NCBI GenBank assembly: GCA_951812325.1
Contig: OX638294.1
Location: 529,136 to 593,135 of the forward strand
Direction of reading: 5' to 3'
Origin: an uncultured Thermoanaerobaculia bacterium
Lineage (GTDB): Bacteria; Acidobacteriota; Thermoanaerobaculia; Multivoradales; Multivoraceae
Length of the DNA: 64,000 nucleotides
Shown: piece by piece, positions 3,141 to 26,005 of the stretch
Layout of the letters: each line of letters starts with the position of its first letter
How positions within the stretch are numbered: the stretch's first letter is position 1
Program-made: the position numbers and the translations under genes
Notes under the pieces: generated by a model
Told to the model about the DNA's origin: nothing
What the model saw: the letters and a program-made list of their open reading frames with translations, nothing else
Databases searched by the model: none

Positions 3141-3165
3141 CGGCGGCGCATTGGGTTCCGGCCCC

Positions 3166-3330: not shown

Positions 3331-4086
3331 GACATCCCGCAGCGTCCGCTGCATCACGCCGTAGCTGCGGAGTTCCTTGCCCAGGAAGGCCCGCCGGACC
3401 TCCCGCGCAATCGCCTCGACCGACTTGAGCGTCGACTCGTCAACGCCTCCGTTCTCCTGCAGCCGGGCCAGACCGGCGCCGCCGATGCGGCGCAGGAAGG
3501 CGAGAGCCGGCTCGCCGATCCGCCGGTTCGCGCCGGCCCCGGCGCCGCACGAAGGACACAGCAGGCCTTCCCCGTCGACCGCCAGCATCGCCTCGTCTCC
3601 GAGCGCGTTGCCGCAGGACGGGCACTGCCGGGGCGCCGGGAACACGCCGGAGAGCCGCAGGGTCCAGCATTCCAGGTAGCGAGCCGCCAGGGAGCGGTCG
3701 CAGCCGGCGAGCAGCGCCTGCACGGTCGTATCCAGGAGCCGGTAGAGGTGGTTCTCGGGCTCGTCCTCCTGGGCGAAGACCTGCATGTGCTCGGCGAGAT
3801 ACGAAGAGACGAGAATCCCCTCGAGGTCGGCATGCAGGGCTCCGGGACTCCTGATCATCTCCGCGTCGCCGAGCCGCACCAGGTCACGGCCGTCCTTCTC
3901 GAACCATGACAGGTGCACCTTGGCGAGCTGCTGCAGCTCGCCGCCGAAACGGCTGAAGCGGGCCCGGGCGCTGCGCGCAGCACCCCGCTTCAACCCCCAG
4001 TCGCGGCTCAGAAAGACAACGATCCGATCCCGCTCGTGCAGATCGATGGTCTGAAGCAGCAGTGCCTCGCCGCTTCGCCGCTTCAT
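3322..4086 (-). CDS. recO: DNA repair protein RecO
   Basis: 254 aa. It has an N-terminal OB-fold-like region (EALLLQTIDLHERDRIVVFLSRDWG) and a Cys4 zinc motif (CPSCG...LLCPSCG). Size and layout are typical of RecO. Confidence 0.8.
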   Translation of the reverse strand: MKRRSGEALLLQTIDLHERDRIVVFLSRDWGLKRGAARSARARFSRFGGELQQLAKVHLSWFEKDGRDLVRLGDAEMIRSPGALHADLEGILVSSYLAEHMQVFAQEDEPENHLYRLLDTTVQALLAGCDRSLAARYLECWTLRLSGVFPAPRQCPSCGNALGDEAMLAVDGEGLLCPSCGAGAGANRRIGEPALAFLRRIGGAGLARLQENGGVDESTLKSVEAIAREVRRAFLGKELRSYGVMQRTLRDVAP

Positions 4087-4101
4087 CGTTCCATCGGCCG
4101 G

Positions 4102-5472
4102 TCAGCGGACCAGCCTGTCGATCATCAGGGCGGCCAGGCCGAAGTACACCAGGATGCCCGTGATGTCGCTGAAGGTCGTGACCATGGGGCCGCTGGCCAC
4201 CGCCGGGTCGATGCCCATGCGCTCGAAGGCCATCGGCAGCAGGGAGCCGATCAGCGACGCGAGCATGATGGCGAGAAAGAGCGAACTCGCAACCACCGCG
4301 CTGTAGGCGGGGTTCTGTTCCAGGAACGCCGACACCGCCGCCGCAACTGTCGAGCAGACCAGGCCCACGACGAGACCGATCCGGATCTGCTGCATCAGGA
4401 AGCGCCGCATCCGGCCGCCGCCCTCGCCGATCCTGCCGGTGGCCAGACCGCGCACGGTCAGCGTCATCGTCTGACTGCCGATGTTGCCTCCCATGCCCAT
4501 GACCACCGGCGCGAAGGCGAGCAGGAAGACCGCGTCCAGTCTCATCTGGAACTGCTTCATCAGGACGCCGGTCAGGGTCAGACCGATCAGGTTGACCAGC
4601 AGCCAGGGCAGCCGGATGCCGGCTACGCGCCACGACCGTTCCCGGTACAACAACTCGTCGTCCGAGGTCCCGACCATCTTGTAGAAGTCCTCTTCCGCCT
4701 CCTCCTGCACGATGTCGATCACATCGTCCACGGTCACCAGCCCCAGCAGGCGACGGTCCTCGTCCACCACGGGAATCGCCAGGAAGTCGTAACGCGAAGC
4801 GAGCTGCGCCACATCTTCCTGGTCCGTATCGGTGTTCGCGGTGACCAGACCACGGTTCATGATCTCGCTCAGGCTGCGGGTGGGCACCGAGAGCAGGAGT
4901 TGCCGCAGGGACAGGACACCGACCAGGCACCCCTCCGGATCGACGACGTAGAGGTAGAAGATCATCTCGACCTCGCCGTGTTCGCGGATCTTGGCGATCG
5001 CCTCGCCGACCGGCGTGTCCTCCGGCAGGGAGAAGAACTCCGTGTTCATGATCCGCCCGGCCGTGTCCTCCTCGTAGGCGAACTGGGTCTGCAGTTCATC
5101 GCGGTCGGGCCGGTCGAGCAGAGCCAGCACGGAGTCGCGCAGCTCGTCCTCGAGACCGTCGACGATCTCGACACTGTCGTCGACCGCCAGGGGAGCCAGC
5201 AGACCCGCGATCTCGGACGGCGAGAGCGCCTCGAGCAGCGGCCGCCGTTCGCCGGGCTCCAGCTCCAGCAACACCTCGCCGGCCGAGTCCGGGTAGTCCT
5301 CGAGCGCCAGCCGGACGACGAACAGCTGCTCCGTGGGCACCAGTTTCCGCAGCGCGGCGGCAACGTCTCCGGGCCGCACCTTGCTGAGCACGCGCGAAAG
5401 GTTGCGGCGGGCGCCGCGGCGCGCCAGCCGGCGCATCGTGTCGCCCAGAATCTCGACTCGCTGGGTGGACAT
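4102..5472 (-). CDS. mgtE: magnesium transporter MgtE
   Basis: 456 aa. It has an MgtE N-domain, tandem CBS domains and a C-terminal 5-TM domain with the GGNIGSQTMTLTVRGLATG motif. Confidence 0.9.
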   Translation of the reverse strand: MSTQRVEILGDTMRRLARRGARRNLSRVLSKVRPGDVAAALRKLVPTEQLFVVRLALEDYPDSAGEVLLELEPGERRPLLEALSPSEIAGLLAPLAVDDSVEIVDGLEDELRDSVLALLDRPDRDELQTQFAYEEDTAGRIMNTEFFSLPEDTPVGEAIAKIREHGEVEMIFYLYVVDPEGCLVGVLSLRQLLLSVPTRSLSEIMNRGLVTANTDTDQEDVAQLASRYDFLAIPVVDEDRRLLGLVTVDDVIDIVQEEAEEDFYKMVGTSDDELLYRERSWRVAGIRLPWLLVNLIGLTLTGVLMKQFQMRLDAVFLLAFAPVVMGMGGNIGSQTMTLTVRGLATGRIGEGGGRMRRFLMQQIRIGLVVGLVCSTVAAAVSAFLEQNPAYSAVVASSLFLAIMLASLIGSLLPMAFERMGIDPAVASGPMVTTFSDITGILVYFGLAALMIDRLVR

Positions 5473-5789
5473 GACGAGTCGGATCGTACCAGTGGGGACC
5501 GGCGGGACGCCCGGACGCCGGCGCCAGATGCTCCCCGGCTTCCGGACCAGGGCTCCTCAGCCTGTTGGCGGGACCCGCAACCGTTCGCCGCCCTGTCGGG
5601 GCGGGTACCGTGCCGTAGGGCGTCGGGTCGCAGACGGCCTGCGCGAAGGCTGCCCGGGTTCCCAGCACAACCGCGCAGCGACAACGAAGCCAGCGCTCCT
5701 GCCCTATGGTCCGCATCACGGCGTCGCCGCGAAGTGGCGCGCCCAACGCCCTGAGCCCGGCGCGCCGGCCTGCGGCCTCCCCGCCCGCG

Positions 5790-6257
5790 CTAGCGGACCT
5801 CGAAGACGGCGTCGATCTCTACCGGCACGTTGAACGGCAGCTGGTTGGCGCCCACGGCGAAGCGGGCGTGCCTCCCCTTGTCGCCGAAGACCTCCACCAT
5901 GAGGTCCGAGGCGCCGTTGATCACCGCCGGGTGGTTGTCGAAGTCGTCGCTGCAGTTGACGAAGCCGCCGAGCTTCACGCAACGGACGACGCGTTCCAGG
6001 TCGCCGCCGCAGGCTGCCGCGACGACGGCCACGATGTTCACCGCGACCAGACGGGCGGCCTCCTGCGCCTCCTCCAGCGAGTAGTCGACACCCACCTTGC
6101 CCCGGTACGCCAACCGCCCGTCCTTCACCGGCACCTGGCCGGAAACGAAGACGAGCGACCCCGTGCGCACGAAGGGCACGTAGTTCGCGGCGGGCGCCGC
6201 GGCTTCGGGGAGTTCCAGGCCGAGCGCTTCAAGGCGCTCCTTGATCGTCGTGGTCAT
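5790..6257 (-). CDS. RidA/YjgF/L-PSP family protein
   Basis: 155 aa. It shows YjgF-type conserved blocks (FVSGQVPV, ARFAVGANQLPFNVPVEIDAVFEV). Confidence 0.8.
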   Translation of the reverse strand: MTTTIKERLEALGLELPEAAAPAANYVPFVRTGSLVFVSGQVPVKDGRLAYRGKVGVDYSLEEAQEAARLVAVNIVAVVAAACGGDLERVVRCVKLGGFVNCSDDFDNHPAVINGASDLMVEVFGDKGRHARFAVGANQLPFNVPVEIDAVFEVR

Positions 6258-6502
6258 CCAGGCAGACTCCTCGGCGCCTGCGAGCGCCCGATGTCGCGGG
6301 GCGGCAGGCTGCGACCCGGTGGCGTGGTCATCCCGACCGACTCCCCGGCGCCTGCAAGCGCCCGATGTCGCGGTGCGGCAAGCTGCGACCCGGTGGCGTG
6401 GTCATCCGGACCGACACGCCGGCGCCTGCAAGCGCCCGATGTCGCGGGGGGCAAGCTGCGACCCGGTGGCGTGGTCATCCGGACCGACTCCCCGGCGCCT
6501 GC
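6251..6502. repeat. 74-bp tandem duplication (about 3.4 copies) spanning the LLM stop / ridA start junction
   Basis: The string tggtcatcc occurs at 6251, 6325, 6399 and 6472. On the minus strand each unit carries ATGACCACG, the first three ridA codons. The rightmost unit holds the LLM stop in an overlapping ATGA. Confidence 0.9.
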
Positions 6503-7422
6503 GCAAAGGCGGCGAACAGCTCCTCGAACGCCTTGATCTGGTTGCCGGCCGCCGACGACGGCACCAGGATCGGCGTGCCGATACCGGCGTCGAACCAGCG
6601 CTCGACCCCCTCGCGCACCTCCGCCGCGGCGCCGAACAGCGTGCAATCGGCCAGCCAGCGATCCGACAGCAACCCCGGAATGCGGTCCATCTCGCCCTGT
6701 TCGACGGCCTGCTCCACCGCCTCCATCTCCTCGACGTAGCCGGCCGCCTTCCAGTAGTTGCGGTAGTTCGGCAGCAGCACGTAGCGGCTCAGGGTCTTGC
6801 GGTTGCGGGCCGCCGCCAGATCACGATCGTCGGAGATCACCGTCGGGATCATGTTGCCCACGAAGAAGTCGGGATCGGCGGCCCTTCCCCCCGTTGCCGC
6901 CAGGGAATGCGCCATGTGGGAGCGGGCGCCATTCGCGAACACCATGCCGTCGCCGATCTCCGCGGCGGTGGCGATCATCCGGTCGCGCAGCGTGGCGAGG
7001 ACGATCGGCGGCAGTTCGCCGGCGCCAGGCACCGCCTTCAGTTCGTCGACGAAGGAGCGGATATCGGACAGCGGCTTGCCGACGGTGACGCCCAACCGCG
7101 CGTGCGCCGGCGCGTGGCCGACGCCGACGCCGAACCGGAAGCGGCCCCGGGACACCTCGTGGATGAAGGACGCCGTGTGCGCGAACTCGGTCACGTGCCG
7201 GGTGTAGATGTTCACGATCGAGGTGCCGAACCGAATCCTCTCGGTACAAAGCGCGATCGCCTCGCAGAGCGCCAGCCCGTCGCCCATGCTGGGACAGTAG
7301 ATGCCGCTGAAACCACGGCGTTCGATCTCCGCCGCCAGGTCGAGCGTGAGCCGCCGGCGCCCCGGCACCGCAGCGAGGGAGACCGCCGGGAGGCCGTCGT
7401 GTTGCGGAGGCGCCGTCGTCAT
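6475..7422 (-). CDS. LLM-class (luciferase-like) F420-dependent oxidoreductase
   Basis: 315 aa, a TIM-barrel luciferase-like family by motif (FSGIYCPSMGDGLALCEAIALCTERIRFGTSIVNIYTRH, RFRFGVGVGH). It is in the same window as an F420 biosynthesis cluster. Confidence 0.75.
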   Translation of the reverse strand: MTTAPPQHDGLPAVSLAAVPGRRRLTLDLAAEIERRGFSGIYCPSMGDGLALCEAIALCTERIRFGTSIVNIYTRHVTEFAHTASFIHEVSRGRFRFGVGVGHAPAHARLGVTVGKPLSDIRSFVDELKAVPGAGELPPIVLATLRDRMIATAAEIGDGMVFANGARSHMAHSLAATGGRAADPDFFVGNMIPTVISDDRDLAAARNRKTLSRYVLLPNYRNYWKAAGYVEEMEAVEQAVEQGEMDRIPGLLSDRWLADCTLFGAAAEVREGVERWFDAGIGTPILVPSSAAGNQIKAFEELFAAFAQAPGSRSG

Positions 7423-7437: not shown

Positions 7438-10400
7438 TCAGCGTCCCGAGGCGACGATCTCAAGGGCGTCGAGAACCTTCTGCGCCTGCTTGCGGTCGAG
7501 ATACGGATGAGCGAACTGGTTGCGATAGCTCCGCAGGCAGCCGTAGCAACTGACATCGCAGCCGCAGCCGCCGGCCACCCGGCGGCGGGCGCCGGCGAGC
7601 ACCCTCATGAGGACGTCGTCGTCGTCCAGTTGCGTGACCAGACCGGCGCCGCCGGGAACGTTGTCGTACAGCACGACCGCCGATGCGTCAGGCACGCTCC
7701 CGGCGGCGATGGTGACGTTCAGGTCGTTCTGCGGAACGCCGATCGCGTCTGCGGCACCAAGGAGAACGGCGTAGGCGACCGAGTAGGCCGGCCACTGGTC
7801 ACGCAGGTCCGGGAACTCCATGCGGACGACGTCCGTGACCAACTCGTGGCCCAGCGAGAACTGTTCGAGCATTCCCCTGCACTCCCGACCGGTCGGAGCC
7901 TCGTGTTTGGCCGTGCGCTTCGCAGAGTGGGCGCCGCATGATCGGCAAACGAGGAACCCCCGACCGCCATGGCCTTCGCAGAGTATGACCAGAGTTCCCG
8001 AGGCGGCCGAACTGACACGCAACCCACAACGAGTTTGTGCGATATCGGCGTCGGCGTCGGCGAAACCCTGGAAGAACGGACGAGTGCTGTACACCCTGTG
8101 CGCTCGTCGCCGGGGAGGCTTCGGGTCCCTGAACATGGGTGTGACGAAACCAAACCGGGGAATCAGGTACTTCTTCCGCACCTGGGCTGGCGCATCGGAG
8201 CTTCCCTCGGTCCACTGTTCGAAGCTCCGCGAGTCGTCGTGCCGGTACATCCGTACCGGCCATTCCTTGCCGGACACCTTCCTGATCCCGCAAGACTCCC
8301 ACTCGAGCTTGTTCGCCACGACCTTCCCGCCCGGCGCGTACTCGGCGATCGCCTGGGAGAGGTCCCGCTGAAGAGACACGTTCAGCCCCCCGCCCCGAAC
8401 CTGCCGGGTGTGCAGCTCGACAACATCAACCGGGAAGCCGTACTTGGGGATCACGGCCTTCCGCGACAGGAACTCCAGTGTCGACCGGCCGGCGACCGTG
8501 TCCATGCGCTTCTTGACATCCTCTGCCTTTCGATACCCGCGTCGAGCAACAGCTGTCGCTTCGATCTCTCCCAGTTCGAGGTACTCCGAGCAGACCTCCG
8601 CCTCGGCGAGCCCGAGCCGGCTGTCCGGACCTCCGATGCGTTCGATCCACCGCCGGTCGCGCAGGCCCACGGCATCCGCCACGCCCTCAGGGACGATCCG
8701 GATCAGCATGGACTCAATCGACGTCGAGTTCTCTTCGCACCAAGTGGTGAAATCCCCCGCAGCCCGCGGAGCCTTCCAATCCTCGATGAAGGCGGCGACG
8801 TTCGTGAACCGCTTCCGGTGACGATGGAAGAACCCACTCAGGACGGCCGCCGCCATGTGGCGCAAGACGATGCGATCGTTTGAAAGATGAAGTCTCGGCG
8901 GATCCACATCGCCGCGGATCATGCTCGCTTCCGGATCCTCGTAGTGATGGAGGTCGTGCGGGTTGCGCCGGCAGTATGTCACCGCGAGGCCGGCCCGCTC
9001 TCCGCGTCCGGCCCGCCCAACTCTCTGGACGTAGTTGAATGGTTCCGGCGGCACGTTGCGCAGGAACACCACGTCGAGATCACCGAGGCTCACGCCCACC
9101 TCGAACGTCGTTGAGGAACTGAGGAGCTCGACCTCCCCGTTCTTGAACTTCTCCTGCAGGCGACGGGCCTTTTCCGGAGCGACCTGCGCGGTGTGTTCTT
9201 CCGCTCGCAGCCGCGGCGGCAGGCTCGGGCTCTCGTAGAGAAGCCTGTAGTGGTTGTCCACAAAGGTCCCCGGGTTCGCCGGATGCAGACCTCCGCTACA
9301 GCCGATCCGGGGACACACACCCCGGACGAAGTGCGGGGTCACCGTGGTGCAGGTGTCGCAGCGCCAGATCGGGTCGTCTCCGACCGGGTGGAGGCGCAGC
9401 CACTCCGAGCCCAGACGAAACGTGCCATCGAACTTCTCGCGAACGAGCAGCATACCGGTCGAAACCGCTGTCAGCGCTTTCCAGATCCCATAGGCCGCCG
9501 CCGTGCTCGGTTCCAGGGCCGTCGCCGCATCCCGGCCGTTCTTGCCGAGAACCCGGGGAAGGAAGTGCTTGACGAGCCCGGAAGCCCGGCTTCCCCATTG
9601 GGCAACGTGAGGGCGACCGCCCGGTTTTCCCAGGCCGTAGGCTGTCTGAGGGAGCTTGGAGACGTCCCTCCATACCGGGGCACCCTCGGTCGAAGGCAAG
9701 CGGAGAGCACGACGGGCCGGAAACGCGCTGAGGCAGTACTGAACCAGGCTCGATGCCTCGACCTCCGTGAGGTTCCAAGGTGGAGCGAGCAGCTCAGGCG
9801 GTACCGAGAAGTCCGCGGGAAGCGCGACGGTCCAGCGAACGAGACCGACACCGCTCAGGGAGATCCGCCGTTCTTCCGTGACGATCTCACCAAGGATCGC
9901 CGTCAGGACACATCGCCGGTGGGACTCCGCGGTCTCCGAGGCTCCGAACAGCCCGGCGCGCTCCCGGATTCTCCGCAGTCTGCTCGCCAGATCCTCGATG
10001 CTCAGGCCCTCTCCGGCCGCCGCCTCCCGCGCCGCCCGGAAGATCAGGTTCCGGTCGAGCAACCGACGGTAGGAGTCCTGGGCGTACCACGCGAAAAACG
10101 CCGCCTCCTGCCGACTGTCCGCGAAGGCGAGCACCTTTCGCCGCTTCTCGGGAAGCAACTCGAGCAGGGCGGTCGCGATGACCGCGTTCGGGCCGTCCGA
10201 CCCGTGGACGATTTCCTGAACCGGGTCGCCGACGCCGCCGCGACGGTAGCCGCAAGCCTCACACTGGCGGAGCTGATCCGGGTGGTCCTTGTGGGTTCGG
10301 CAGCGCACGACCTTGATTCCTGCGTCGCAGTCGCAGGTCAGATCTCGACTGGTGACCAGGCCGCAGCGCCGGCATAGTGTCCTGTTCCCTTCTTCCGAGG

Positions 10401-11685
10401 GCATGAAGAACTCGGCTCCGAAACCGGATCGCCCCGGATCGCGAACCGCCTCCCGGAGTCTTCCGCGGAGCACCTGGCCGACGTAGTAGTGCTGGCCGCA
10501 TTCCCGGCAGAGCGCGAGTTCGAGAGGCGTGGCCTTCGCCTCCTTCTCGCTCTCCCCCTCGTCGTCGCCGCGGTTGAGACGGACGACGTCGCGGCCTTCA
10601 CGGTGGACCAGGAAAGCGCCCTCGAGCGCCCTGAGGAATGCGTGATACCGACTTGCTTCTTCACCACGCTCCTCTTCGCGCTCCGCAAAGACCACGTCTC
10701 CAGACCCGAAGGGCTCGCCAAACAGAGTCTTCGCGAATTTCGCGACTGCCGCCCGGTCTTCCTCTGCCTCACTAGTCGACAGAGTGGCGCTAGTCGCGAT
10801 GCAACGGAACGGCTTGTCGCTGCCTCGACCGCCCTCGCAGATTCGCTGCTTGAGCCGCCGGATCAGCATGGCCATCTCCATCCCCTTGGCGCCCCGATAC
10901 TGGTGCGCTTCATCGAGCACCAGAAAGCGCCAGCGGGAACCTCGACCCTCATCGAAGAGCGGGCTGTCGTCGGGCCGGATCAGCAGGTACTCCAGCATGG
11001 AGTAGTTCGTCAGCAGGATGTGGGGCGGCGAATCCCGCATCTCCTCGCGGAACACGAGTTCTCCCGGAAGCCGACCCTCCTCCCTCGTCTTGCCATGACG
11101 CCATTTGTCTCGGACGTTGTAGGGCGTCTGCCCGATGTACTGGCCGAACGTCGGACGAAAAGCAGATCCCGAGGCCGCAAGCGCCCGGCAGATCTCGCCC
11201 AACCGTTCGCGTTGGTCATTCGCCAGGGCGTTCATCGGATAGAGGATCAGCGCCCGGACACCCCCATCGTCCAGCTCGCCGGAAAGGTGCTGCCGGTACA
11301 GGTGCAGGAGGATCGGATAAAGAAAACTCTCCGTCTTCCCGCTAGCCGTCCCGGTTGCCACCACGGCATTCCGGTCCTCGGCGTGAAGCAGCCTGATCGC
11401 CTGCTCCTGATGCATGTAGAGCGGCTGTTCGATCAGGGCTGGCTCAACGCCGATGCTACGGCCAGGAAACCACTCCCGCGCCAGCACTCGCGCCGAAACG
11501 CCTCGCCGGAAGTCACGGGAGCGTTCAGGAATCGGCCCCTTGAGCAGGGTTCCCTCTTCGCGAAGCGCCTGCTGGAAGGAGGCTCTGAGCGCCGGATCCC
11601 GGAAGAAGAACGAGGTCTTGAGATAAGCCTCGTAGCGACGGCGGATCCGCTCGGGCCATTCGTTGATTTCAAGCGCGCTGGGCAT
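7438..11685 (-). CDS. large DEAH-box superfamily-2 helicase with C-terminal DUF1998/MZB zinc domain
   Basis: Helicase motifs present: motif [12 protein letters not shown], motif [14 protein letters not shown], motif [10 protein letters not shown] and motif [12 protein letters not shown] Cys-rich insert sits between the RecA lobes ([25 protein letters not shown]). The C-terminus [12 protein letters not shown]...[18 protein letters not shown] is the DUF1998 four-Cys signature. The likely start is ATG 11685 ([10 protein letters not shown]), which overlaps the upstream gene's stop by 17 nt. The ORF is open to 11742. Confidence 0.85.
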
Positions 11686-14600
11686 CGAGCCACCCTCGCA
11701 ACCGATCGACGTTGTCCTGATCCACGGCAATCCGCTCCTCATCCACGGAGACCCTCGACCGCCGGATTTCGACGCGAGTCAATCCCGCCTGTTCCAGTTC
11801 GTCCGGGCTGTAGCCGACCTGCCTCCAGACACGGGGCCGTGGTTGCATCCAGGCCTTCGGCGGCGGCACATCCCAGACGCGCAACGGCTTGACCGCATGG
11901 TTCCCGAAGCTCACCAGCAGCGCTCGCTCCTTCGCCGCCGGCCGGGCCACGGCGACGTAGTCCCGGAAGTCCCGAAGGGGCACGCTCACCACCCGCCACT
12001 CTTCAACCAAGGTTGCGGGGTACTTCCTTCGGGTCACCGAGTCGAAGCCGACCCGGACTCTCCCTACCGCTTGAGGCAGACGAAGCTCCAGGCGCCGGCC
12101 CTCCTCGCTGAAGCACTGGAAGTCCTGCCGCTTGCACTCGAACCGGACCGCCTTCCAGGCCCCTGGTTCGCCGGTACCTCCGCGCATCCGCCACCACACT
12201 CGCGGAGGGCGAACAACGATTCGCACGACGCCTGAGGGCGTGGGGATCCGGTACACGGCCCGCTCGCCATCCGGGTCCGGCCTGGTACGGCGAGGACTCC
12301 AGACGGTACCGCCTCGCTTTCGACCTGGCGTTTCGGGCACTCGCCGGCCTCCTCGACCCCGGCTGTCGGCTATCAATTGCACGCTGGCCTCCCGATGCCC
12401 GGTCGCCTCCGGAAGCAGGGCGGTGGAGCGGGTGTAGCTCTCTTCGTTGATCCTGATCTCGCGGAGTTCCTCAAGGAGACGGAATTGGCCGCTGTCGCAC
12501 AAGCCGTCGTCGTCGTAGGCCCGGATGTAGAAGCGGCCCTGGCGACCGGCCAGAACGTCCGGCAGGGACTTCTCGGCCGGGTCGAAGGTCTCGCCGAGCC
12601 AACCGGACTCCCCTTCGGAACCCACGCGGACCTCCCGAACGGTCGAACCGCAGGAGAGGTTGGGGATCGTGCGAAACAGGTCGCCCTGCCGGGAGTCGTC
12701 GAAGACCCGTACGCCGGAGAGCTCGAACGCCGCGCCGACCGGGTCGAGCGGGTATCCCGCGAACCCCACGTCCCCGTCGGTCGCGTCGCCCTTCTCGACT
12801 CGGAAGTAGTGGACCAGGAAGCCATCTCCACAAGGCGACGGCTCCACCGGCGGGACGCCCAGCCGATCCCAGTCCTCGGGGGCGACCACCAGGAAACTGC
12901 CCGGACGCACGCCGCGCACCCGCCGCCCCACGCCGCTCCAATCGGCTGCGGCCCGGAAGATGAGAGGTTTGCTGCCCTCGAACAGAGGCACGTCGAACCC
13001 TACGCCGCCAGCCGTGCGCACCTTGAGGGAGCCACTGCAGGACGGAATCGCGAAGACGCCATCTCGCAGATCGAGTTCCTCGTCATCGAAGACGACCTCC
13101 TGAACGTCCAGACCGTCCGGGGCCGACAGCGCCAGGGCGAAACCCCAGCCGTCGTCACGCTCCCTGCAGATGAGCTCCGGCCGCAGAGAAGGGCGAACCC
13201 TTGTCTCCGGCAGCGGTCCGACCCCGGATCGGACCGGGAGTCCGTCCCTCCGGCCACCGATCTCGGCTACCGGACGACGCGCCGCTGGCTCCTCCGGCGG
13301 AGGCGTCTCCGGAGCGTACGGACGGGGCGCGACTGGAGGTGGATCCGCGTTTGGCCCGGTCCCCGCCGCCTGTCCGACAAGCCGCAGCTCACTCGTCCTG
13401 ATCCGGTTGCAGACGGTTCTGAACGAGGCTTCGCGCAGAGACATGGCCGAAAGACCCTCCAGAAGGTCGAGCAGTCGGGACCAGTCGGACTCAGCGAACC
13501 GGAGAGTCGGCATTCCCGCCTCCGGCGGCGACGGCGTCCCGTTCAGGAACGACCGGCGCCGGGCTTTCGCCTCCGCCACTTCCTTCTCCAGGCGCTCCAC
13601 GCGTCTCCTGGCTCGCGTCAGGTCGTCCGTCTTCCGCTCGACCCGCTCCCTCAAGCGCTTGATCCTGCTGCGGGTGCGCTCCAGATCGCCTTCCAGCGCC
13701 CTCATCTTCTCCAACACGCCGGCCCGCTTGGCCGCGCGCTTGCGGCCGTTCCCGTCGAGCCGCGTAACCGGGTCGTCGACCTCCACCAACGTCGAGAACC
13801 CGGGTGGCGCGGAACGCGCCACACGCGAAGCAGTCGGTCCGCCCGTCATCGGGCGGATCGACTGCAACGGCTGCGGGGGCTTGCGATCCGCGAGTTCGGT
13901 CAATGCCAGGAGCCACGTCGTCAGATCGGGGTGGGTGGCGATTGCCTGGAGAATCAACCACTTGCCCTCCTCCATTGCCCGCCCGAGCTCGACTTCGTCT
14001 TCCTGGTCGAGCAACGGTTCCCTGCGTACCTCTGCCTGGTACAGAGCCGCCGGGTTGAGACCCCGTTCCGGGTCGGCGTCCTCACCCGGCACGCAGGCGT
14101 CGTCCGTCCTCTGGCCTGACGTGCCGTGCCGGGCCAGTCTCCTGCGGGAGTGAGGCAGCGCGGCGCCGACCCGGGGCGCCTCCGGATCGGGTGGAATCCG
14201 CCTCTTCGGAAAAGTCCAGGGATCGGTACTCCCGTCAAGGAGGGGCGACAGGCCACGGACGAGGTCCGGGCGCCTGAGCTTGCGAAGTGCCTTGGCCTGA
14301 ATCTGGCGGATGCGCTCGCGGGTGATGTGGAACCGCTTGCCGACCTCCTCCAGCGTGTGCTCCTCACCCTCGTCGAGGCCGAAACGCATCCGAAGCACCG
14401 TCTCCTCACGCGGTGACAGGGGCCGCAGCAGGTTACCGACCTTCTCGCGCAGGTCAGCCGAGATGACCTCGTCGATCGGCGACGGCGAATTTCTGTCCAC
14501 GATGAAGTCGCCGAGATACAAGTCCTCTGCTCCGGCCAGCGCATCGAGCGACACCGGCTCCTGGCCGATCTCCATGATCTCGCGCACCCTGGCGGCGGCA

Positions 14601-15448
14601 AGACCCATGTGCTCGGCGATCTCCTTGGCCGTCGGGTCGCGGCCGAGCTCCTGGACCAGCGACCGCGAGGTGCGGGTCACCTTGTTGATGTTCTCGACCA
14701 TGTGAACCGGAACACGGATCGTCCGTGACTGGTTGGCGATCGCCCGCGTCACGGCCTGACGGATCCACCACGTGGCGTAGGTCGAGAACTTGTGGCCGCG
14801 GTGGTACTCGAACTTCTCGACCGCTGTCACCAGGCCGATGTTCCCCTCCTGGATCAGGTCCGGGAGCTGCAGGCCCCGGTTCCTGTGCTTACTCGCGATC
14901 GAGCCGACCAGCCGCAGGTTGGACACGATGAATCGATGTCTCGCCGGCTCGCGAACCGCCACGCCACGCTCCACCTTTGCCAACATCTCCCGCAACTCGA
15001 CCCGCGACACGCAGTGGCGCACCTCCAGCGCCCGGAGTTCGTCGTTGCAGTGGCACTCCGGCGCCACCTGAAGCGGGTGGATACCGCCTTCAACGCACCG
15101 GAACCGTTGGCGGATCGACTTGACCAGGGCGACCAGCCGATCGAGGTCGGAGGCGTCAAGCCCCAGCTTGACGATCAATGCCGAACGACGTTCCCCCAGG
15201 CGGCCGAGCTCGCGTTCCATCGCCGAGCGCGCTTCACGGTCATCCTCGATCTCCGCACTCAGGCGGCCCACCGACTGACGGGCGCTCGTCAGAGCCTCGC
15301 CCGCCCGCTCGACTCCTTGCGCAAGCCGGTAGAGCGACCTCAGGGCCCTCGGATTCTCCGCGACCCAGGCAGCCGCAACCGGCTCCTCGTCGACCGGCAG
15401 AGCCTCAAGAGATGGGGATGCACCCTCTGAATCCGCGGATTGCTTCAT
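11669..15448 (-). CDS. sigma70-domain fusion protein: sigma regions 2-3-4, then region 1.2, a coiled coil, and a ~440-aa module shared with the ZorD-like protein
   Basis: The sigma70 core is near-canonical: [118 protein letters not shown] region-1.2-like block follows downstream of it ([31 protein letters not shown]). The C-terminal part aligns with 23085-24360. The likely start is ATG 15448 (MKQSADSEG); the ORF is open to 15559. Confidence 0.8.
13796..13862. repeat. twin-hairpin core of the MITE-like family, embedded in-frame in the sigma-fusion CDS
   Basis: The string cccgggtggcgcggaacgcgccacacgcgaagcagtcggtccgcccgtcatcgggcgg matches the core of the 41512 element at about 51 of 61 positions by eye. 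Both stems are preserved. It is translated as [19 protein letters not shown], against [19 protein letters not shown] in the other copies. Confidence 0.75.
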
Positions 15449-15671
15449 CCTCGTGTCGGTCAGGTTACATGCGATGATGCCATCCGACCACCACGAGCGC
15501 CAGGAACCGAACTGTCCAAGGACTCCAGCCCCTCGTCTCGCGGCGGCGCGCCTGCCCAACGCCGCCGGAGTGCCTTGTGCGGTGCTAACCTGCGTCGCTT
15601 CCTCTCGCTACCGCGCCGATGAACACGATGCCCCTCCCAGCGTGGCCGACCGGCCCGAAGCTGAACCTCTC
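15449..15671. promoter_or_regulatory. divergent control region between the sigma-fusion operon and the zor operon (extent depends on the true zorA start)
   Basis: This is head-to-head gene geometry. The stretch looks locally less GC-rich (ggttacatgcgatgatgccatcc). No convincing -35/-10 pair was identified. Confidence 0.3.
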
Positions 15672-17861
15672 GTGCGTCTGAACCTCGGGGAGGCTTTTGC
15701 CGACTGGATTCTTGAGCTGGCCGGCCTGCTGCGTCACGAGGCAGCTCCCGGGTGGGTCTCGCTCGCGCTCATGGCCGGCCTGTTTGCAGCGCTGATCAGC
15801 TATTCGTGGCGCGCCCGAGGCCTGCTCAGGACCATTGCCGAGAGCAGATCCGTGATCGGCGACACCCACACTGCTTTCGACGACTCCCGGTTCATCGAGA
15901 TCAGCCAGTCCTTCAAGAAGTGGGAGAGCGTCACGAGGCAAACGGCACGTCACCGGCTCGGGGAGGCCTGGCGCGAGTTCGCCGAGACCGTCAATCGCCA
16001 GAAGGGCCTGTTCAACACGGTCAGACCGAGGGAGTTCTTCGACCGCGAACTGCTCCACATGGAGCATCGTTTCTTCGCTCAGCTCCCTGCGCTGTTCGTC
16101 TCCGTTGGGCTCCTGCTCACATTCCTTGGCTTGGTCGCGGCGCTCGACCAGACACGCGGAATCCTCCAGGAAACAGGGGTGGACACCGTGAGCGAAGGGC
16201 TCCGGAACCTGCTCCAGGTCGCCGGCGCAAAGTTCATCATGTCCCTCACCGGCCTCTTCTGCTCCATCGTTTTCGGACTTTGGTTCCGGACGCGCGAGGG
16301 GAAGATCGACGAAGCGCTGCACGGCCTGTGCGCCGACATCGAGCGGGGATTCGAGTACCGGAGCGCCGACAGCTTTCTGCTTGAGAAGGTACTCGAGGTA
16401 CTCGAGGAGCAGGGGACGCACCTCCAGACCTTTAGCACGGAACTCGTCGCCCAGGTGGCGCGGCCCTTGCGGGAGGAAATCCCCCAGGCGATGCGGGACT
16501 CAATTCGGGAAGCGATGGGGCCTGCGCTGGCCAAGTTCGAGGAAGGCGCAGGGAAAGGCCTCGATTCACTGGTCGCAGGCGTGTCGAAAACGATGAGCGG
16601 CGGTGTCCAGGACTCGGCTCGCGCCATCAGCGAGACGATGGACAGGGTGGGCCAGACCTTGAACGACGTCGCCTCCCGGCTGGACGACTCGGCCGTATCC
16701 ATGGGCGGACAGATGGACCATGCAGTCGGCGCGCTCGCCGGCGAAATCCTCTCCCTCAGAACTGCCATGGCCGATTCGACGGAAGCTGCAAGGGAGAACC
16801 TGCAGGACGGCGCGCAAGGGATGCGCGCGACGATGGAAGAAGCGCTCCAGGAGATTCGCAAGAGCACCCAGGCCGGTGCGGATGGCATCGACAAAGCAGC
16901 CACGGCGATGGCCGCGGCAGTGGCCGGTTCAACGCACGCGGCAAGCGAGAACCTGCAGGACGGCGCGCAGGGAATGCGCGCCACGATGGAGGATGCTCTT
17001 CAAGAGATCCGCAAGAGCACTCAGGCCGGCGCGGACGGCATCGACCACGCAGCCACGGCAATGACCGCGGCGGTGGACAAGCTGGCGACCCGAGCTGACG
17101 AGGCGTCGAAGTCGGCGTTCGCCGCGGGGAGCCGGACGATCGAGGAAGCAAGCCTACGTGCTGTCGAGGGCCTGGGAGCATCCGCGGAAGCGGTTTCCCA
17201 GGCGATGAAAGGGATGGCCGGCGATGTTCGCGACCGCGTAGGCGAGGCCTCTTCCGCCATTGGCAGCGACCTGCTCGACCAGTTGAAGGACCTTGCCGCC
17301 GCGATCGGCGAGTTGCAGACCCGGATCACGTCGTCCGTCGGAACCGTCGACCGCTATGCCGAATCCCTCGATAGCGGCACACGCACGATCACCCGGGCGA
17401 CGGCCGGACTGAGCTCCGCGAGTACGGAACTGACGCAGGCCGCCCTCCCTGTTCGCGGCGCGGTGTCGGATCTGGTCGAGGCGAACCGTTCCATGGAACA
17501 GAAGGTCTCGACCACGGCGGAAGCAATGGAGTCGGGCGTTCGCCTGATCACCCAGCAGACTGTTGCCACGTTGAGATCGACGGCAGACGCGGTCCGGAAC
17601 TCTCAGGCCGCCGCGGAGGAAACCCGGAGATCACTTGAACAGGTGACCCGGAAGTTCCAAGATCTGGTCGAGCGGTTCGGCGGTCTCGACCATCGTCTGG
17701 GCGAAGCGTGGAAGAAGCTCGAAGCGGACGCGAGAGCCAGTTTGGCTGAGTTCCGCCGCTTCGAGGAGGAGTTGAACCAGGAGTTCGCCCGGTCGCTCGG
17801 AAAGCTGCAAGAGGTCATCGAGCAAGCGGAGCCCTTCACACCGCGAAACGGAAGGTACTGA
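15453..17861 (+). CDS. zorA: ZorA-like MotA/ExbB-family stator protein with long helical tail
   Basis: TM helices are present ([20 protein letters not shown]; [21 protein letters not shown]; [21 protein letters not shown], MotA/ExbB-like). They are followed by about 500 aa of Ala/Glu/Gln-rich helical tail. The gene lies directly upstream of a MotB/OmpA-like gene. The start is uncertain: GTG 15453 would leave no promoter space, and GTG 15672 (VRLNLGEAF) is an alternative. Confidence 0.75.
16794..17075 (+). repeat. in-frame 153-bp (51-aa) tandem duplication inside the ZorA tail
   Basis: [43 protein letters not shown] starts at 16794. [43 protein letters not shown] starts at 16947. There are 3 aa differences in 43. 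Confidence 0.9.
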
Positions 17862-17867
17862 GAGCGA

Positions 17868-18707
17868 ATGGCGATCGGGTCGCGGGCTCGACGGCGAGGC
17901 GAGGAGCGGCAGGATTCCGCGTTCGTCACGGTCACGGATCTCACTGTCTCCTTCCTGTTCGTCCTCCTCATCCTGCTGGCTTTCTTCGCTTCGGAGTTCC
18001 GACCCGACGAGGAAGAACCGGATGCCGAGCCGGAACCGCTGGCGGCCTACCTTGAGAGCGCAGCCGCAACGCGGCTCCAGATCCTGGAGTTCATCGCGGA
18101 GCGGCTTCGAGCGAACCTCCCCGGCCTTCGTATCAGCGTTGTCGCCGCGGACGGCATCATCCGCTTCCGCAGCGACGAGCTCTTTCGGCCCGGGCAGTGG
18201 AGAATCCCCAAGGGCAGCATGCCCGAACGAGTGGCCCGCGCCCTCGGCGATGCACTGCTCGACACCCTGCCCTGCTACACGATCGGCCCAGCCGCGGCGA
18301 TGCCGCAGGACTGCGAGGACGTGCTTGCCGCGATCGAGACGATTCAGATCGAAGGCCACACCGACGATCTGCCACTCCTGCTGGCCCTCCAGGAGCGCGA
18401 GAGCATGAAGGACAATCTGGATCTCTCGGCGCGGCGCGGGGCGGAGACCCTGCGGGCGATGACTGACGGCTATCGCCCCGAACTGATGGACTACAGGAAC
18501 ATCCGAGGCGAGCCTGTGCTGTCATTCGCCGGCTACGGTTCGATGCGGCCGATCGACGACCGACCGACGGACACCGGAAGGGCCGCAAACCGCAGGGTGG
18601 ACATCCGTTTCATCCTTCAGACGCCGCAGAATCTGGCTCAGATCGAGCGGATCCGAGCGCGGCTCACGGCGCAACGCGAAGGACTGCCGCCCGTGGCAAA
18701 CCGTTGA
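17868..18707 (+). CDS. zorB: ZorB-like MotB/OmpA-family stator subunit (peptidoglycan-binding)
   Basis: 279 aa. It has a single N-terminal TM helix with a conserved acidic residue (FVTVTDLTVSFLFVLLILLAFF). It also has a C-terminal OmpA-like domain (IQIEGHTDDLPL, NLDLSARRGAETLRAM, FAGYGSMRPI, NRRVDIRF). It starts 7 nt after the zorA stop. Confidence 0.8.
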   Translation: MAIGSRARRRGEERQDSAFVTVTDLTVSFLFVLLILLAFFASEFRPDEEEPDAEPEPLAAYLESAAATRLQILEFIAERLRANLPGLRISVVAADGIIRFRSDELFRPGQWRIPKGSMPERVARALGDALLDTLPCYTIGPAAAMPQDCEDVLAAIETIQIEGHTDDLPLLLALQERESMKDNLDLSARRGAETLRAMTDGYRPELMDYRNIRGEPVLSFAGYGSMRPIDDRPTDTGRAANRRVDIRFILQTPQNLAQIERIRARLTAQREGLPPVANR

Positions 18708-18714
18708 CGGCGCT

Positions 18715-20166
18715 TTGGCAATGAGAGGCAAGCGCTTCGACCTGGAAAGCGAGAGTCGGCTCTCTTCCCTGCTCGAGCCGGATCGCCCGGGACAGAACCG
18801 GAGCGGGCGGCAGCCGGCACGGCGGATTGGCGAGCCGGTCGCCCTCCGGCGCGCGGCCCGGCAAGTCGACCAAGCGTATCCCGACATCGATCCCGACGTG
18901 AGGGAGGAAGACCGTGAACAACTGGTCCGCGAGCTCGACCGGCGACAACGGTCGGACGACTGGCGCGACTACACTTGGGCCGATCTGCAGAGGGCTGCCC
19001 GGGCGCTGCTCCAGCCTGGCCAGAGCCGGCAGCGGGGACGCTCTGGCCGGTGGAACATCACGCCCAGCCGCTCAAGAAATGCCCTGCACCAGCAGCCCGC
19101 GTACCGACCGCTCGTTGGGTTCCTGCTCGCACAGGTCGACGAGCAGGCCAAGCCTCGCTTCCTGCGCACGATGTGGCGGCTCTACCTGTCGACCTTCAAT
19201 AGACACTCCTCGCTCACGCAACAACTGGCTCGCCGACTCGATGCCTGTGTTCGGCACACGTTGCTGCCGATTCGGGGGGCAGTGGATCTCGGTATCCTGA
19301 AGCCCAGATCCGCAGTCGAGAACCTCGCCGCCCGGATGGCCGCCGACCCGAGTCCCTTCGAGTTCATCAAGGACATCGGCATCGAAGCGCCCCACGGCGA
19401 GGGATTGATGGCGCAGGTGCACGAACGGTTCGTTCGCCAGCATGGGGCAACGCAACTCCGACGCCACCAGGAAGAAAGCTCTCGCCTGCTTTACTGGATC
19501 GCGCCGCCCAATGCTCGCCCGATGGAAGCAGGGGCCGAACTCGGGATCAATGCCCTGCTCGCTCCCTGGGAGCGCTCCGAACCCGGCCGGGAACTCCGCA
19601 AGAGGCTGGAGACCGCGCTGATTCGCGGATTCGGCGATCCCAGGATCATTCGCACCGGCGCCTGGTCCCGCTCTAGACCCGATGCCCGAGCAGTCATGAT
19701 GCGTTGGCTGGCCGGCGAGACGATCGAGGTCTTCTTCGAGATCATCTCCAAGGCCGTCACGTCCCACATGTGGGCGGATCGCAGAGGTCTCTGGACGGAG
19801 TTGTACCGAGCGAGCCGCATCCACGAGGCGTGGTTCGCGTTGAGTCCTCGCGGTGAGGAAGCGGCGAGAAGGCTCAGAGGGAACCAGGACGTGCCGCTCG
19901 CCTACGGCAGAAACGAATCCCGGAACTCCGGGGACAGGGACAAGTGTCTTCTAGTAATGAGGATCGACCGCGATCGCGTCGTCGTCGAGGGTTCGCACAG
20001 CTTCAAGACTCACGTTTATCGCCGCGGCGACCGCCGGAGTGTCTCGCTATACGAGGACACCTACGATTGCGACAATGTTCGTGACCACGGGCGGACCGGC
20101 CACGCCAACGCCTTCGTCCACCACTCGGCCTGGGAACGGCGAGTTCGCGCGGCGCTTGACGGATGA
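18715..20166 (+). CDS. zorC: ZorC-like protein (candidate EH-signature domain)
   Basis: 483 aa. It sits in the ZorC position between zorB and the SNF2 gene, and its stop overlaps the next start (ATGA at 20163-20166). The C-terminal VVVEGSHSFKTHVY and AFVHHSAWERRV resemble the E-x-SH / H-x-x-W pattern I recall for EH-signature domains. This is not verified by HMM. ATG 18721 is an alternative start. Confidence 0.55.
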   Translation: MAMRGKRFDLESESRLSSLLEPDRPGQNRSGRQPARRIGEPVALRRAARQVDQAYPDIDPDVREEDREQLVRELDRRQRSDDWRDYTWADLQRAARALLQPGQSRQRGRSGRWNITPSRSRNALHQQPAYRPLVGFLLAQVDEQAKPRFLRTMWRLYLSTFNRHSSLTQQLARRLDACVRHTLLPIRGAVDLGILKPRSAVENLAARMAADPSPFEFIKDIGIEAPHGEGLMAQVHERFVRQHGATQLRRHQEESSRLLYWIAPPNARPMEAGAELGINALLAPWERSEPGRELRKRLETALIRGFGDPRIIRTGAWSRSRPDARAVMMRWLAGETIEVFFEIISKAVTSHMWADRRGLWTELYRASRIHEAWFALSPRGEEAARRLRGNQDVPLAYGRNESRNSGDRDKCLLVMRIDRDRVVVEGSHSFKTHVYRRGDRRSVSLYEDTYDCDNVRDHGRTGHANAFVHHSAWERRVRAALDG

Positions 20167-23100
20167 CGGCCATCGAACACGCGGTGCAGCCCGACCGCGT
20201 GCTCTTTCGAGCCATCCGCTCCCGGACCCGATCACAGCGCCAACCCGGCCAGCGAGAGCCGACCGATTCCGGCTTGTCGGTCGACGCCTGGGTCGGCGGC
20301 GATCTTGCGCGTTGTTCCGCGCTAGCTGCGCTTCGCAGATTCGGGCACGAGCATCCCGGCGCAGTTGCGGTCCGGGATAGAGAGATCTCCGCCTCGCACG
20401 CCGCAGTCGCCGCTCTCACCCCCACGCAGGCAAGCGCCCTGAACCTCCCCGAGCGCCCGCCCTTCTCGCTCAAGCTTGACGTCAGGGGCGTGATCGGCAG
20501 CGGGAGTTTCGCGCTCCGGACCGAGTGGCAGCGAGGCGGGCTGCCAGTCACGACACGTCGGCTGGGCGCCTTCCTCAACAGCGGACACGGCGACTTCCTG
20601 ATCCCCGAACCCCTTTTCTCCGCAGTCGAACTCGCTGCCAACTTCGATGCCGCTTCGACCGACATCTCCGGCCACTGGAGCGGGTTAGCCCGATTCCGCC
20701 GCCTGTTCGACGACCCGGCAACCGATAGCGCAGTCGAGATGACGCCCTTCCTCCGGGGTATCCGGATCTTCACTGTCGGGGCCTTGACCCTCGACGTTCG
20801 ACAGAGCGTCGACGGCGTCGAGTTCGATCCGATTCCGCTAAGCGCAGAGGCAAAGGAAGGAGCAACCGAAGACGCCAGGGAGATAGACGATCCGGAGTGC
20901 GTTCTGCCGAAGGACATGCTGAAACGTTTTCAGGCCGACCCAAGGACCGGCTTCTCCGCCTTCTCGACGGCCAAGCGGAGCTACCTGCTCGGCGCCAATA
21001 CCTACGTCCTCGTCGACGAGGACCTGCTCGCCGCCCTCGAGGTTGTCCGTGAGAAGCAGCAGGCGCCGCCCGAAGATCGACGGGGTTTCGCTGCGAATCC
21101 GGGCGCAGCGATCGCGGAGCGGCTGGCCGAAAGGGTGAAGCGGGAAAACCCGGATGCCGACGCGATCGACCTCGGAGAGGCGATCGAGGACCGGACGTCG
21201 CGAGTGTTCATCGAGACCGCTCACTACGCCAGGTGCGCCGAGGAAGCGGGAGTCTGGGAGCGCCCGCATGCGAAGGACCCACCCGATGGTTCGGGCGCCC
21301 CCCGGCCCGAGGAGATTGCGGAACAGGGCGATACGCAGCGGGCGCCCGAACTCGAGTCTCCCGGCGACATCGACCAACCTCGTACGGGACCGCCGCCCGC
21401 CCGCAGAAACGAACTCGACGATGCCGACGCTCTGCTGCTACTCGAACCGCGAAGGGAACTCGTGGAAGAGACTCCCTGGCCGGCGCGGGTCGAGACCAAG
21501 CCGTATCCGCACCAGATCGCCTGCTTCGAGTGGCTCGTCGCGTCCTGGGCAACGGGCCAACCAGGCGTGCTGAACGCGGACGATCAGGGACTCGGCAAGA
21601 CGCTGGAGACGTTGGCATTCCTCGCTTGGCTGCAGAACGAAGTCGATGCGGCCGGCGAAGGACCGGCGGACCTGAGTTGCCGGGCGCCGATCCTCGTCGT
21701 GGCGCCCACCGGGCTGCTTCGCAACTGGGAGACCGAGGTCGTTCAGCACCTCGGGGCCACCGGATTGTTCGCGGCCCATCGAATCTACGGCTCCTTCCTC
21801 AATCTGTACCGAAAACCCGGCCTCCACGGCGCAGATACGGGGGACGGTCGCAGCCGACTTCACTTCAAGCCCGTCCGCACAGCGGTCGAGAGAGACCGCG
21901 GCCACCTGCAGTGGATGCTCACGACCTATCAGACCCTGACGAACTACCAGCAGAGCTTTCGTCAGCTCTACTTCTCGACCGTCGTGTTTGACGAGATCCA
22001 GATGGTGAAGAACCCGGCAACGGCCCGCGCCCGGGCGGCGCGCTCGGTCCAGGCGGACTTCCGTATCGGGCTGACCGGAACGCCGATCGAGAACCGGACG
22101 ACGGACGTGTGGGCGGTGATGGAAGTCCTCGCCCCCGGCCGTCTGGGTTCGCTGCGCGACTTCGAAGCGCGCTACGGCGAACCCTCGAAGGAAAGCCTGG
22201 ACGAGCTCCACGGCCGACTCTTCGAACCGCAGCCCATCGCCGGGGACGGCGAGGCGCCACCGCTCGCGATGAGGCGTCTGAAGGAAAGCGTGCTAGCCGG
22301 CCTGCCGAGGAAGTCCCACACTCGTTACCGCGAAACGATGCCGCCGCGGCAGGCAACGGCCTACAACGAGGCCGGGAATCTGCTCCGGACCGGCGAGAGA
22401 GGCGCGGCCTTCAGGACGATTCACCGGCTGCGCGCGGTCTCTCTGCACCCCGACGACCCAAAGACCGCAGGTGGCACAACAGACGCCTACATCGAAGCCT
22501 CCGCCCGGCTGGCCAGGCTCAGTGCGCTACTCGACGACCTCCACGAAAAGGGCGAACGGGTGCTGCTGTTTATCGATGACCTCGACATGCAGGCGTTTGT
22601 CGCCCAGTGGCTGCGCTCCCGCTACGCCCTTGGCGAAGTCCCGATCATCAACGGTTCGACTCCCGTGCCCCGGCGGCACGAACAGATCCGCCGCTTCCAG
22701 AAGCATGCGCCCGACAGCCGCGAGTTCGACGTCTTCATCCTCTCGCCCCGAGCCGCGGGCTTCGGCCTCACTCTGACGGCGGCAACCCATGTCATTCACC
22801 TCACCCGGTGGTGGAACCCCGCCGTCGAAGAGCAGTGCAACGACCGGATCTACCGAATCGGGCAGACCCGGGACGTGACCGTGCATCTGCCGATGGCGAT
22901 TCACCCGGCGGAGCCCGAACGATCGTTCGACCACCTACTCGACGAGTTGCTCCGAAAAAAGGGGGAACTCGCCCGCTCGGCCCTGTGGCCTCCGGCCGCG
23001 TCGGAGAGCGAACTCGGACAGATGATGGAGGAGCTTCTGGGAACCGGCCCGACCGTTGACTCGCTGCCCCCGGTTGTCCGGGCCCCGGAACTCATCTGCC

Positions 23101-25997: not shown

Positions 25998-26005
25998 GAG
26001 TCGGC

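Follow-up and report, generated by a model that had tools for sequence, protein, structure and literature searches.

The window analysed here is a 64-kb stretch of DNA (64,000 nucleotides, G+C ~0.68) from an uncultured Thermoanaerobaculia bacterium of the Acidobacteriota. It contains a complete zorABCD operon, that is, a type I Zorya system, and beside it, transcribed divergently, a gene for a sigma-70 fusion protein followed by a gene for a compact DruE/YprA-like helicase. The C-terminal regions of the sigma fusion and of ZorD, the Zorya effector, carry copies of one module of ~440 amino acids. The home of this module is a cassette of two genes whose layout is that of Druantia type III, the module protein taking the place of DruH. 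The locus is a variant that joins two known systems, Zorya I and a Druantia-like cassette.

The module and its two host genes

The two C-terminal regions, 11669-13300(-) and 22950-24575(+), form a single collinear BLASTP alignment with 197 identities over 451 residues (44%), 14 gap positions, a score of 322 bits and E = 3e-108. The alignment covers 11876-13225(-) and 23040-24353(+). The Smith-Waterman score of copy 1 against copy 2 is 879, compared with 42.5 +/- 6.7 for 200 shuffles (z ~124), and tblastn finds exactly two copies within the window. The structured module spans 11873-13180(-) (copy 1, amino acids 757-1192 of the sigma fusion) and 23085-24353(+) (copy 2, amino acids 975-1397 of ZorD). 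The similarity, its coordinates and its placement in a sigma-70 fusion and an SNF2-type ZorD encoded in divergent operons had been described in the original prediction, which was made from the sequence alone, and all of this was borne out.

The sigma-module protein is encoded at 11669-15448(-). It is 1259 amino acids long, as is its protein database entry, P0208, and consists of an N-terminal helical region, sigma-70 regions 2, 3 and 4, a region-1.2-like segment, a coiled-coil or disordered linker, the module, and an eL13-like tail. Regions 2, 3 and 4 (amino acids 174-392; ~14273-14929(-)) are present in the correct order according to Pfam (PF04542, 6e-18; PF04539, 5e-22; PF04545, 2e-17). The protein scores 419 bits against the NCBIfam RpoD model and 329 bits against TIGR02393 (RpoD_Cterm), the latter below its cut-off of 354. 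The region-1.2-like segment (amino acids 469-495, ~13964-14044(-)) lies after region 4, which is an abnormal order. In tblastn it also matches 56836-56916 and 41625-41717, probably region 1.2 of ordinary sigma-factor genes. The divergent C-terminal tail has 67 amino acids (11672-11872(-)); it falls below Pfam significance and is recognized by its alignment with the tail of the module family. A basic motif, K.PR.IGGRR, stands ~25 residues N-terminal of the module in nearly all family members and reads EIGGRR in the sigma fusion (~13240-13270(-)). Promoter and terminator scans of the divergent intergenic region found nothing.

ZorD (20163-24575(+), 1470 amino acids) matches the PADLOC ZorD model at 3.9e-286 and PDB entry 8qy7 at 2e-56, and possesses SNF2-rel_dom and Helicase_C domains. 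Its layout is an N-terminal domain, the SNF2 motor (amino acids 445-960; ~21495-23042), the module as a C-terminal graft, and a low-complexity end of 73 residues. The ZorD copy has neither the eL13-like tail nor the K.PR.IGGRR motif. It retains 30 of the 30 family-invariant residues, which are mostly aromatic and are kept across phyla. Upstream of zorD, ZorA and ZorB are encoded in tandem. ZorA (15453-17861(+); these are open reading frame (ORF) limits, and the true start is probably further downstream) matches PADLOC ZorA1 at 1.6e-141 and scores 188.2 bits against NCBIfam ZorA_1, slightly below the cut-off of 190. ZorB (17868-18707(+)) matches PADLOC ZorB1 at 1.6e-72 and the Pfam OmpA family. 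ZorC (18715-20166(+)) has the EH signature (PF15611, 9e-42) and matches PADLOC ZorC1 at 3e-98.

The module matches nothing in Pfam, NCBIfam, PADLOC or the PDB sequences (phmmer and profile searches), in agreement with the earlier statement that it is no named domain. That statement was accompanied by a guess of several beta-rich subdomains, and the AlphaFold2 model of the sigma copy, built on the family alignment, is indeed all-beta with ~5 sandwich domains (pLDDT 85, pTM 0.79). In a model of the canonical full-length member P0006, the module (residues 148-577) is predicted with pLDDT >90 and is accompanied by a short helix at the N-terminus, disorder over residues 22-141 and a small C-terminal domain of a hairpin plus helices (600-659). 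Foldseek searches with the two models against the PDB and BFVD returned generic immunoglobulin (Ig)-like arrays only, namely LILRB3, contactin, the Sap S-layer protein and phage Ig-like decorations. Foldseek probabilities to LILRB3, contactin and Sap are 0.96-1.0, with TM scores <0.2 because the inter-domain geometry differs. No DruH-like match was returned from these two libraries, which apparently do not include the published DruH structures. The predicted fold class, a tandem Ig-like beta-sandwich, is clear, and the models have no specific structural relative.

The two-gene cassette and the module family

The helicase gene lies at 7438-11742(-), and its product of 1434 amino acids has DEAD, Helicase_C and MrfA Zn-binding (MZB) domains. 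The MZB domain ends at residue 1403; no PLD or Vsr match was found in Pfam, and there is no nuclease domain. The PADLOC matches are DruE1 (2e-144) and DruE3 (1.6e-141). The PDB matches are 9tu7, a 2108-residue "DEAD/DEAH box helicase" (1.4e-78), YprA 6znp (1.6e-18) and the large helicase 9wae; the DruE assignment rests on the PADLOC match and on 2026 preprints, not on the names of entries 9tu7 and 9wae.

In 77 of the 84 non-redundant loci, which come from more than 12 phyla, a homolog of this helicase (50-85% identity in tblastn) is encoded directly downstream of the module. These loci mostly have neither a sigma head nor a nearby Zorya system. The two genes overlap at the module stop and the helicase start, with a median spacing of -61 nucleotides across loci and an overlap of 74 nucleotides in the window (11669-11742). 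An overlap of ~60-70 nucleotides is seen in most of the 77 loci, which suggests either translational coupling or a helicase start ~20 codons further in. All-against-all ORF clustering of the loci revealed no third conserved gene. The original prediction had tied the module to Zorya and had left the helicase at 7438-11742 unconnected to it, though the helicase is the module's one constant companion; the proposed Zorya linkage does not hold for the family.

An exhaustive profile search of 1.84 billion representative sequences gave 922 representatives of the module family at E <= 1e-30, or at least 922 clusters at 50% identity. Word-indexed protein searches under-report the family: they gave 17 and 53 matches, versus 922 by profile, and did not return the ZorD of the related locus L001. 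A scan of one genome per species yielded 80 module loci. Searching 72,556 plasmids with the module by tblastn gave no match, nor did a metagenome scan with the ZorD tail. The cassette occurs almost only in uncultured genomes (L006-L085) whose names suggest sponge or coral microbiomes. Such names include Poribacteria, Poriferihabitaceae, SAR202, Binatia, Latescibacterota and others. They represent more than 12 phyla, and the helicase is still at least 50% identical among them, which suggests horizontal spread within holobiont communities. The family is missed by current defence-finder models and constitutes a large, uncharacterised partner family of compact DruE-like helicases.

The canonical member consists of a disordered N-terminus, the K.PR.IGGRR motif, the module, often an extra Ig-like domain, and finally a small tail. 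Most members have an eL13-like tail, and the family profile matches PDB eL13 with E = 7e-10. Pfam L13e scores are 31.6 bits for P0006 and 27.9 bits for P0002 (cut-off 24.9), with only ~55 of the 180 profile positions covered. Invariant E and R columns in the tail are common to all 64 sequences, P0208 included. The tail is bS18-like in P0013 and P0015 (~50 bits) and bS6-like in P0194 (29 bits), in each case above the Pfam threshold. A defence-associated protein that ends in interchangeable eL13-, bS18- or bS6-like domains is unusual. The interchangeable ribosomal-protein-like tails would point to nucleic-acid binding.

The cassette resembles, as far as descriptions can be likened, the published Druantia subtype III-B, which comprises DruH and a compact DruE without PLDs (10.64898/2026.05.13.724758). 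A "Type III-like" branch of Druantia has also been reported (PMC12458937). With the nearest compact DruE encoded on a plasmid, the helicase clade shares only ~33% identity.

Origin of the ZorD graft

The alignment of E. coli ZorD (8qy7) stops at residue 941 of the window ZorD, so the module is an extension beyond the canonical protein. The nearest ZorDs, P0201, P0202 and P0204 (65-69% identity; 1018-1035 amino acids), end exactly at the graft junction, and the nuclease domain Mrr_cat (PF04471) is found at the graft position in roughly 95 of the 120 best ZorD matches. The graft thus occupies the slot where most related ZorDs have an Mrr nuclease. These observations suggest that the ZorD C-terminus is a swappable slot that may be empty or hold either an Mrr nuclease or a recognition module.

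The graft was seen in three syntenic genomes (the window, L001 and L088), each time adjoining the cassette. The L001 ZorD has 1470 amino acids and is 92% identical over the 104 visible residues; that of L088 consists of P0200 plus a frameshifted continuation and is ~57% identical. The sigma head occurs only in Acidobacteriota-type loci (L001, L006-L010, L088, L091 and L092) and in protein P0123. The sigma fusions of L001, L006, L007, L088 and L092 are accompanied by Zorya, and those of L008-L010 and L091 are not. Any zor gene is found near the module in only five of ~88 module-bearing loci, the same five. One homologous module does stand on two different heads in divergent operons, but a Zorya-linked tail with two equivalent enzymatic heads is not supported. 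The sigma head marks a single Acidobacteriota lineage, and the ZorD graft is even rarer. Separate sigma and module genes in L001 were considered as an unfused state and rejected as an assembly-gap artefact (a run of X).

A neighbor-joining tree of 80 module copies places the ZorD copy as sister to the whole sigma-fused clade. The joint clade of the ZorD copy and the sigma-fused copies was recovered in 200 of 200 bootstraps, and so was the sigma clade excluding the ZorD copy. This position indicates that the graft is an old local duplication, and it rules out distant horizontal transfer as the source of the ZorD tail. The ratio of nonsynonymous to synonymous divergence (dN/dS), taken from orthologs since synonymous sites are saturated between the two copies at 44% identity, is 0.22 versus L001 and 0.23 versus L088 in the ZorD tail; in the sigma copy it is 0.22-0.30. 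The ZorA values of L007 and L088 in this comparison are codon-threading artefacts and were disregarded. The ZorD copy is under purifying selection, which makes a shared binding function a reasonable reading. To this extent the original idea of a common docking or sensing module stands, and its picture of a Zorya-linked tail does not: the feature is real, a shared binding module is plausible, and the Zorya-specific reading is wrong.

Compared with L001, its closest relative, the window shows a mosaic of synonymous divergence, with dS of 0.10-0.14 for zorA-D, 0.36 for the helicase gene and 0.8-1.1 for the sigma-module gene (L001 8041-12070). Since the last value compares with ~0.1 in the zor genes, the sigma-module gene is a divergent allele, probably exchanged by recombination.

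The locus is flanked by MutL, RecO, MgtE and Bac_luciferase genes at one end and by acetyl-CoA hydrolase and GST genes at the other. The flanks are conserved (1251-7422 and 24663-27166 in the window), and the site looks like a chromosomal defence hotspot. Three states of it were found: Zorya only, with a tail-less ZorD of 1020 amino acids (L089); the cassette only (L091); and Zorya plus cassette, with the tail present wherever the end of ZorD is visible (the window, L001 and L088).

In L072 (Longimicrobiales) the module has been joined to an SNF2 protein a second time, independently and outside any Zorya system. The fused ORF of 1756 amino acids (8633-13903(+)) encodes the module and then a DpdE/ZorD-like SNF2 motor, and lies directly upstream of a DruE-like helicase gene. 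The SNF2 part matches Pfam SNF2 at 2e-61 and scores 570 bits against PADLOC DpdE and 360 bits against ZorD.

Proposed function of the graft and comparison with known systems

ZorAB detects invasion and brings in ZorC along with ZorD, an SNF2 nuclease held in an autoinhibited state (PMC11946911). E. coli DruH is a ring of ten domains, Fn3- and Ig-like ones among them, that binds single-stranded DNA (ssDNA) between the fifth of its Ig-like subdomains and its C-terminal domain. DruE, a 3'-to-5' helicase, loads on ssDNA; DruH probably acts as the sensor or regulator. In E. coli OI-172, zorABE is transcribed divergently from druHE, which is the layout of the window. Zorya II and Druantia III synergise via DNA intermediates common to both, Druantia is able to recruit ZorE independently of ZorAB, and the ZorE proteins associated with Druantia have an additional C-terminal region (PMC13192584).

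By analogy with E. coli DruH, the partner encoded by the putative defence cassette would be a recognition or regulatory subunit and the helicase its motor. In the Acidobacteriota lineage, at what looks like a defence hotspot, the partner gene has gained a complete sigma-70 head (regions 2-4), and a duplicate of its module has been added to the C-terminal end of the adjacent ZorD of type I Zorya. The sigma head would most plausibly turn the sensor into a transcriptional output device. The target of the graft would most likely be the DruE-like helicase while it is engaged with phage ssDNA or with fork intermediates, or else these intermediates themselves, and the SNF2 nuclease-motor of Zorya would be brought to the work site of a helicase that has no nuclease. 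The cooperation of Zorya and Druantia, which occurs in trans in E. coli, would be hard-wired here. We give about an even chance to this reading, in which the graft would provide ZorD with the binding specificity of the Druantia-like partner and would couple the Zorya and Druantia-like pathways in cis. Points in its favour are the linkage of the module gene to a DruE-like helicase gene, the Ig-like fold class, the local origin and the maintenance of the ZorD copy, the replaced Mrr slot, the co-occurrence of tail and cassette, the independent SNF2 fusion of L072 and the E. coli precedent.

Several observations weigh against such a coupling. Six family members gave no match at E <= 10 in PADLOC, which contains DruH models. 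The module has no Pfam match, whereas DruH has predicted YjiT domains (PMC13192584). An hhalign comparison with the protein that accompanies a compact DruE on a plasmid of Clostridium butyricum returned a probability of 0.07%. This comparison with DruH was made with the PADLOC models and the C. butyricum partner, not with the E. coli DruH sequence or structure itself, and the likeness to DruH is one of position and predicted fold class only. By this analogy the partner would work like DruH, and it is not filed as a DruH member. Two E. coli studies detected no stable DruH-DruE complex in vitro, which weakens the version in which the graft docks on the helicase. If the eL13-like tail and the basic motif are required for nucleic-acid binding, the graft, which has neither, cannot bind nucleic acid alone. 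The co-occurrence of tail and cassette is about one evolutionary event (three related genomes versus one) and is suggestive, not statistical. Exceptions to it may exist in L006, L007 and L092, where the C-terminus of ZorD lies beyond the sequence examined.

Other sources of a DruH for comparison were considered. Helicase matches on an E. coli plasmid were rejected, since the gene set is ARMADA II-like instead. This IncY plasmid (L093, NZ_CP080067.1) encodes, in this order, a DEAD/DEAH helicase of 952 amino acids, a large SAM-dependent DNA methyltransferase, a DEAD/DEAH helicase of 2113 amino acids that matches the YprA-like helicase of the window, and an ATP-dependent helicase; the gene order resembles ARMADA type II and is unrelated to the module. 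A search of ATCC 8739 did not locate its Druantia locus. The Ralstonia partner has only 470 amino acids as annotated and may be truncated.

A possible, though on balance unlikely, alternative is that the module is a shared trigger sensor without physical coupling. It would recognize a cue from the phage, for example a late structural protein, and the cue would open a ZorAB-independent route on ZorD and release or activate the sigma head; the two systems would share neither contact nor DNA. Across phyla the module retains 27-39% identity and the helicase 50-60%, a sign of much faster evolution in the module; this, together with the allelic divergence of the sigma-module gene between the window and L001, is typical of arms-race sensor genes. 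Ig-like arrays commonly bind proteins, and late phage proteins have been proposed as activators of DruH (Wu et al., PMC13192584). The dN/dS values of 0.2-0.3, however, reveal no positive selection at this resolution, and thirty invariant residues are retained across phyla. A trigger sensor also leaves unexplained both the presence of the tail only beside the cassette and the SNF2 fusion of L072.

Pairing of the two paralogs is improbable. The modules would heterodimerise through an ancestral self-association surface and tether ZorD to the sigma-module protein, through which ZorD would reach RNA polymerase or the helicase. Heteromers are a common outcome when self-associating domains are duplicated, the tail is found together with its parent gene, and functional DruH dimers have been described in E. 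coli (Wu et al., Fig. 5 legend, PMC13192584). Two other E. coli studies, however, found DruH to be monomeric in isolation, nothing points to oligomerisation in the module family, and the copies have diverged to 44% identity.

It is also distinctly unlikely that the module is a generic Ig-like spacer, a passive scaffold whose presence on ZorD is a neutral or structural accretion unconnected to the cassette. The generic Foldseek matches and the absence of an evident catalytic motif are what such a spacer predicts. The original prediction had itself allowed that the module might be a widespread generic domain. That concern applies to its fold, and a general Zorya linkage is indeed absent, but the sequence family is specific, is not a common repeat, and is tightly linked to one helicase clade. 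Moreover, the copy is under purifying selection with all its invariant residues, such as those of the PRxWWR motif, the graft replaces a functional Mrr slot, and an independent SNF2 fusion exists.

Docking of the module to ZorC or to the ZorA tail, which would bring two enzymatic heads to the activated ZorAB motor, accords with the position of both module genes at the flanks of the zor operon, but nothing supports such a contact, and it is very improbable and largely refuted by the distribution, given the rarity of zor genes near the module, the sigma fusions without Zorya, and the canonical ZorDs, nearest relatives included, that work without a tail.

We regard as rather doubtful the more far-reaching form of the coupling reading, in which the module would be an inter-system coupler that recruits ZorD to the DruE-like helicase at work on phage DNA, and its parent would be a phage-sensing sigma factor, its RpoD-like part gated directly by a DruH-type sensor, that reprograms RNA polymerase upon infection. 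If true, two named defence systems would here be joined for the first time by a protein domain common to both, and the parent would represent a new class of sensor-sigma fusion. In the same doubtful vein, the tails of the family could mean that the whole Druantia-like branch responds to ribosomal or structured-RNA cues. The synergy of Zorya and Druantia is under active study (2025-2026 papers) and is explained in E. coli by shared DNA intermediates, with no physical link. A ZorD that carries a copy of the core of the Druantia-side partner is a testable handle on where the two pathways meet.

Among known systems, MZA shares with the window a sigma-70-family domain in a defence or sensing protein. 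The sigma fusion scores 331.8 bits against MzaA (NCBIfam cut-off 800), and the sigma part alone aligns. ECF41 and ECF42 are extracytoplasmic function (ECF) sigma factors with C-terminal sensor extensions, and in the window protein, as in these, the C-terminal extension could regulate the sigma factor. The window sigma factor is RpoD-like (group 1/2), however, not ECF, and its extension has 860 amino acids and ends in the module. Pairs of an SNF2 protein and a YprA-family helicase define DISARM (DrmD with DrmAB), Dpd (DpdE with DpdJ) and ARMADA. The window has the same combination in a single defence locus, and in L072 the module is fused to a DpdE-like SNF2 protein. In contrast to these systems, the window locus is without methyltransferase or base-modification genes, and its SNF2 partner is part of a complete Zorya system.

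Like other type I ZorDs, the window ZorD has an N-terminal domain and an SNF2 motor and is encoded in the gene order zorABCD with an EH-signature ZorC. It differs in having a C-terminal extension of 500 amino acids, with the Druantia-type module, instead of Mrr_cat. The ZorE proteins of type II Zorya (PMC13192584) likewise have an extra C-terminal region specifically when linked to a Druantia-type system; their effector is of the HNH type, whereas ZorD is an SNF2 protein, and the ZorE region is nuclease-like and not a copy of a Druantia component.

With Druantia III and III-B, the cassette shares a two-gene operon in which the partner gene is directly upstream of a YprA/MrfA-like helicase gene (DEAD, Helicase_C and MZB domains), and a large multi-domain partner that is rich in Ig/Fn3-like sandwiches and ends in a possibly nucleic-acid-binding domain. 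The window-type partner differs from both in having no detectable similarity to the DruH models, and its family in having a long disordered N-terminus and a ribosomal-protein-like tail. Like Druantia III in E. coli OI-172, the cassette of the window is placed divergently beside a Zorya operon.

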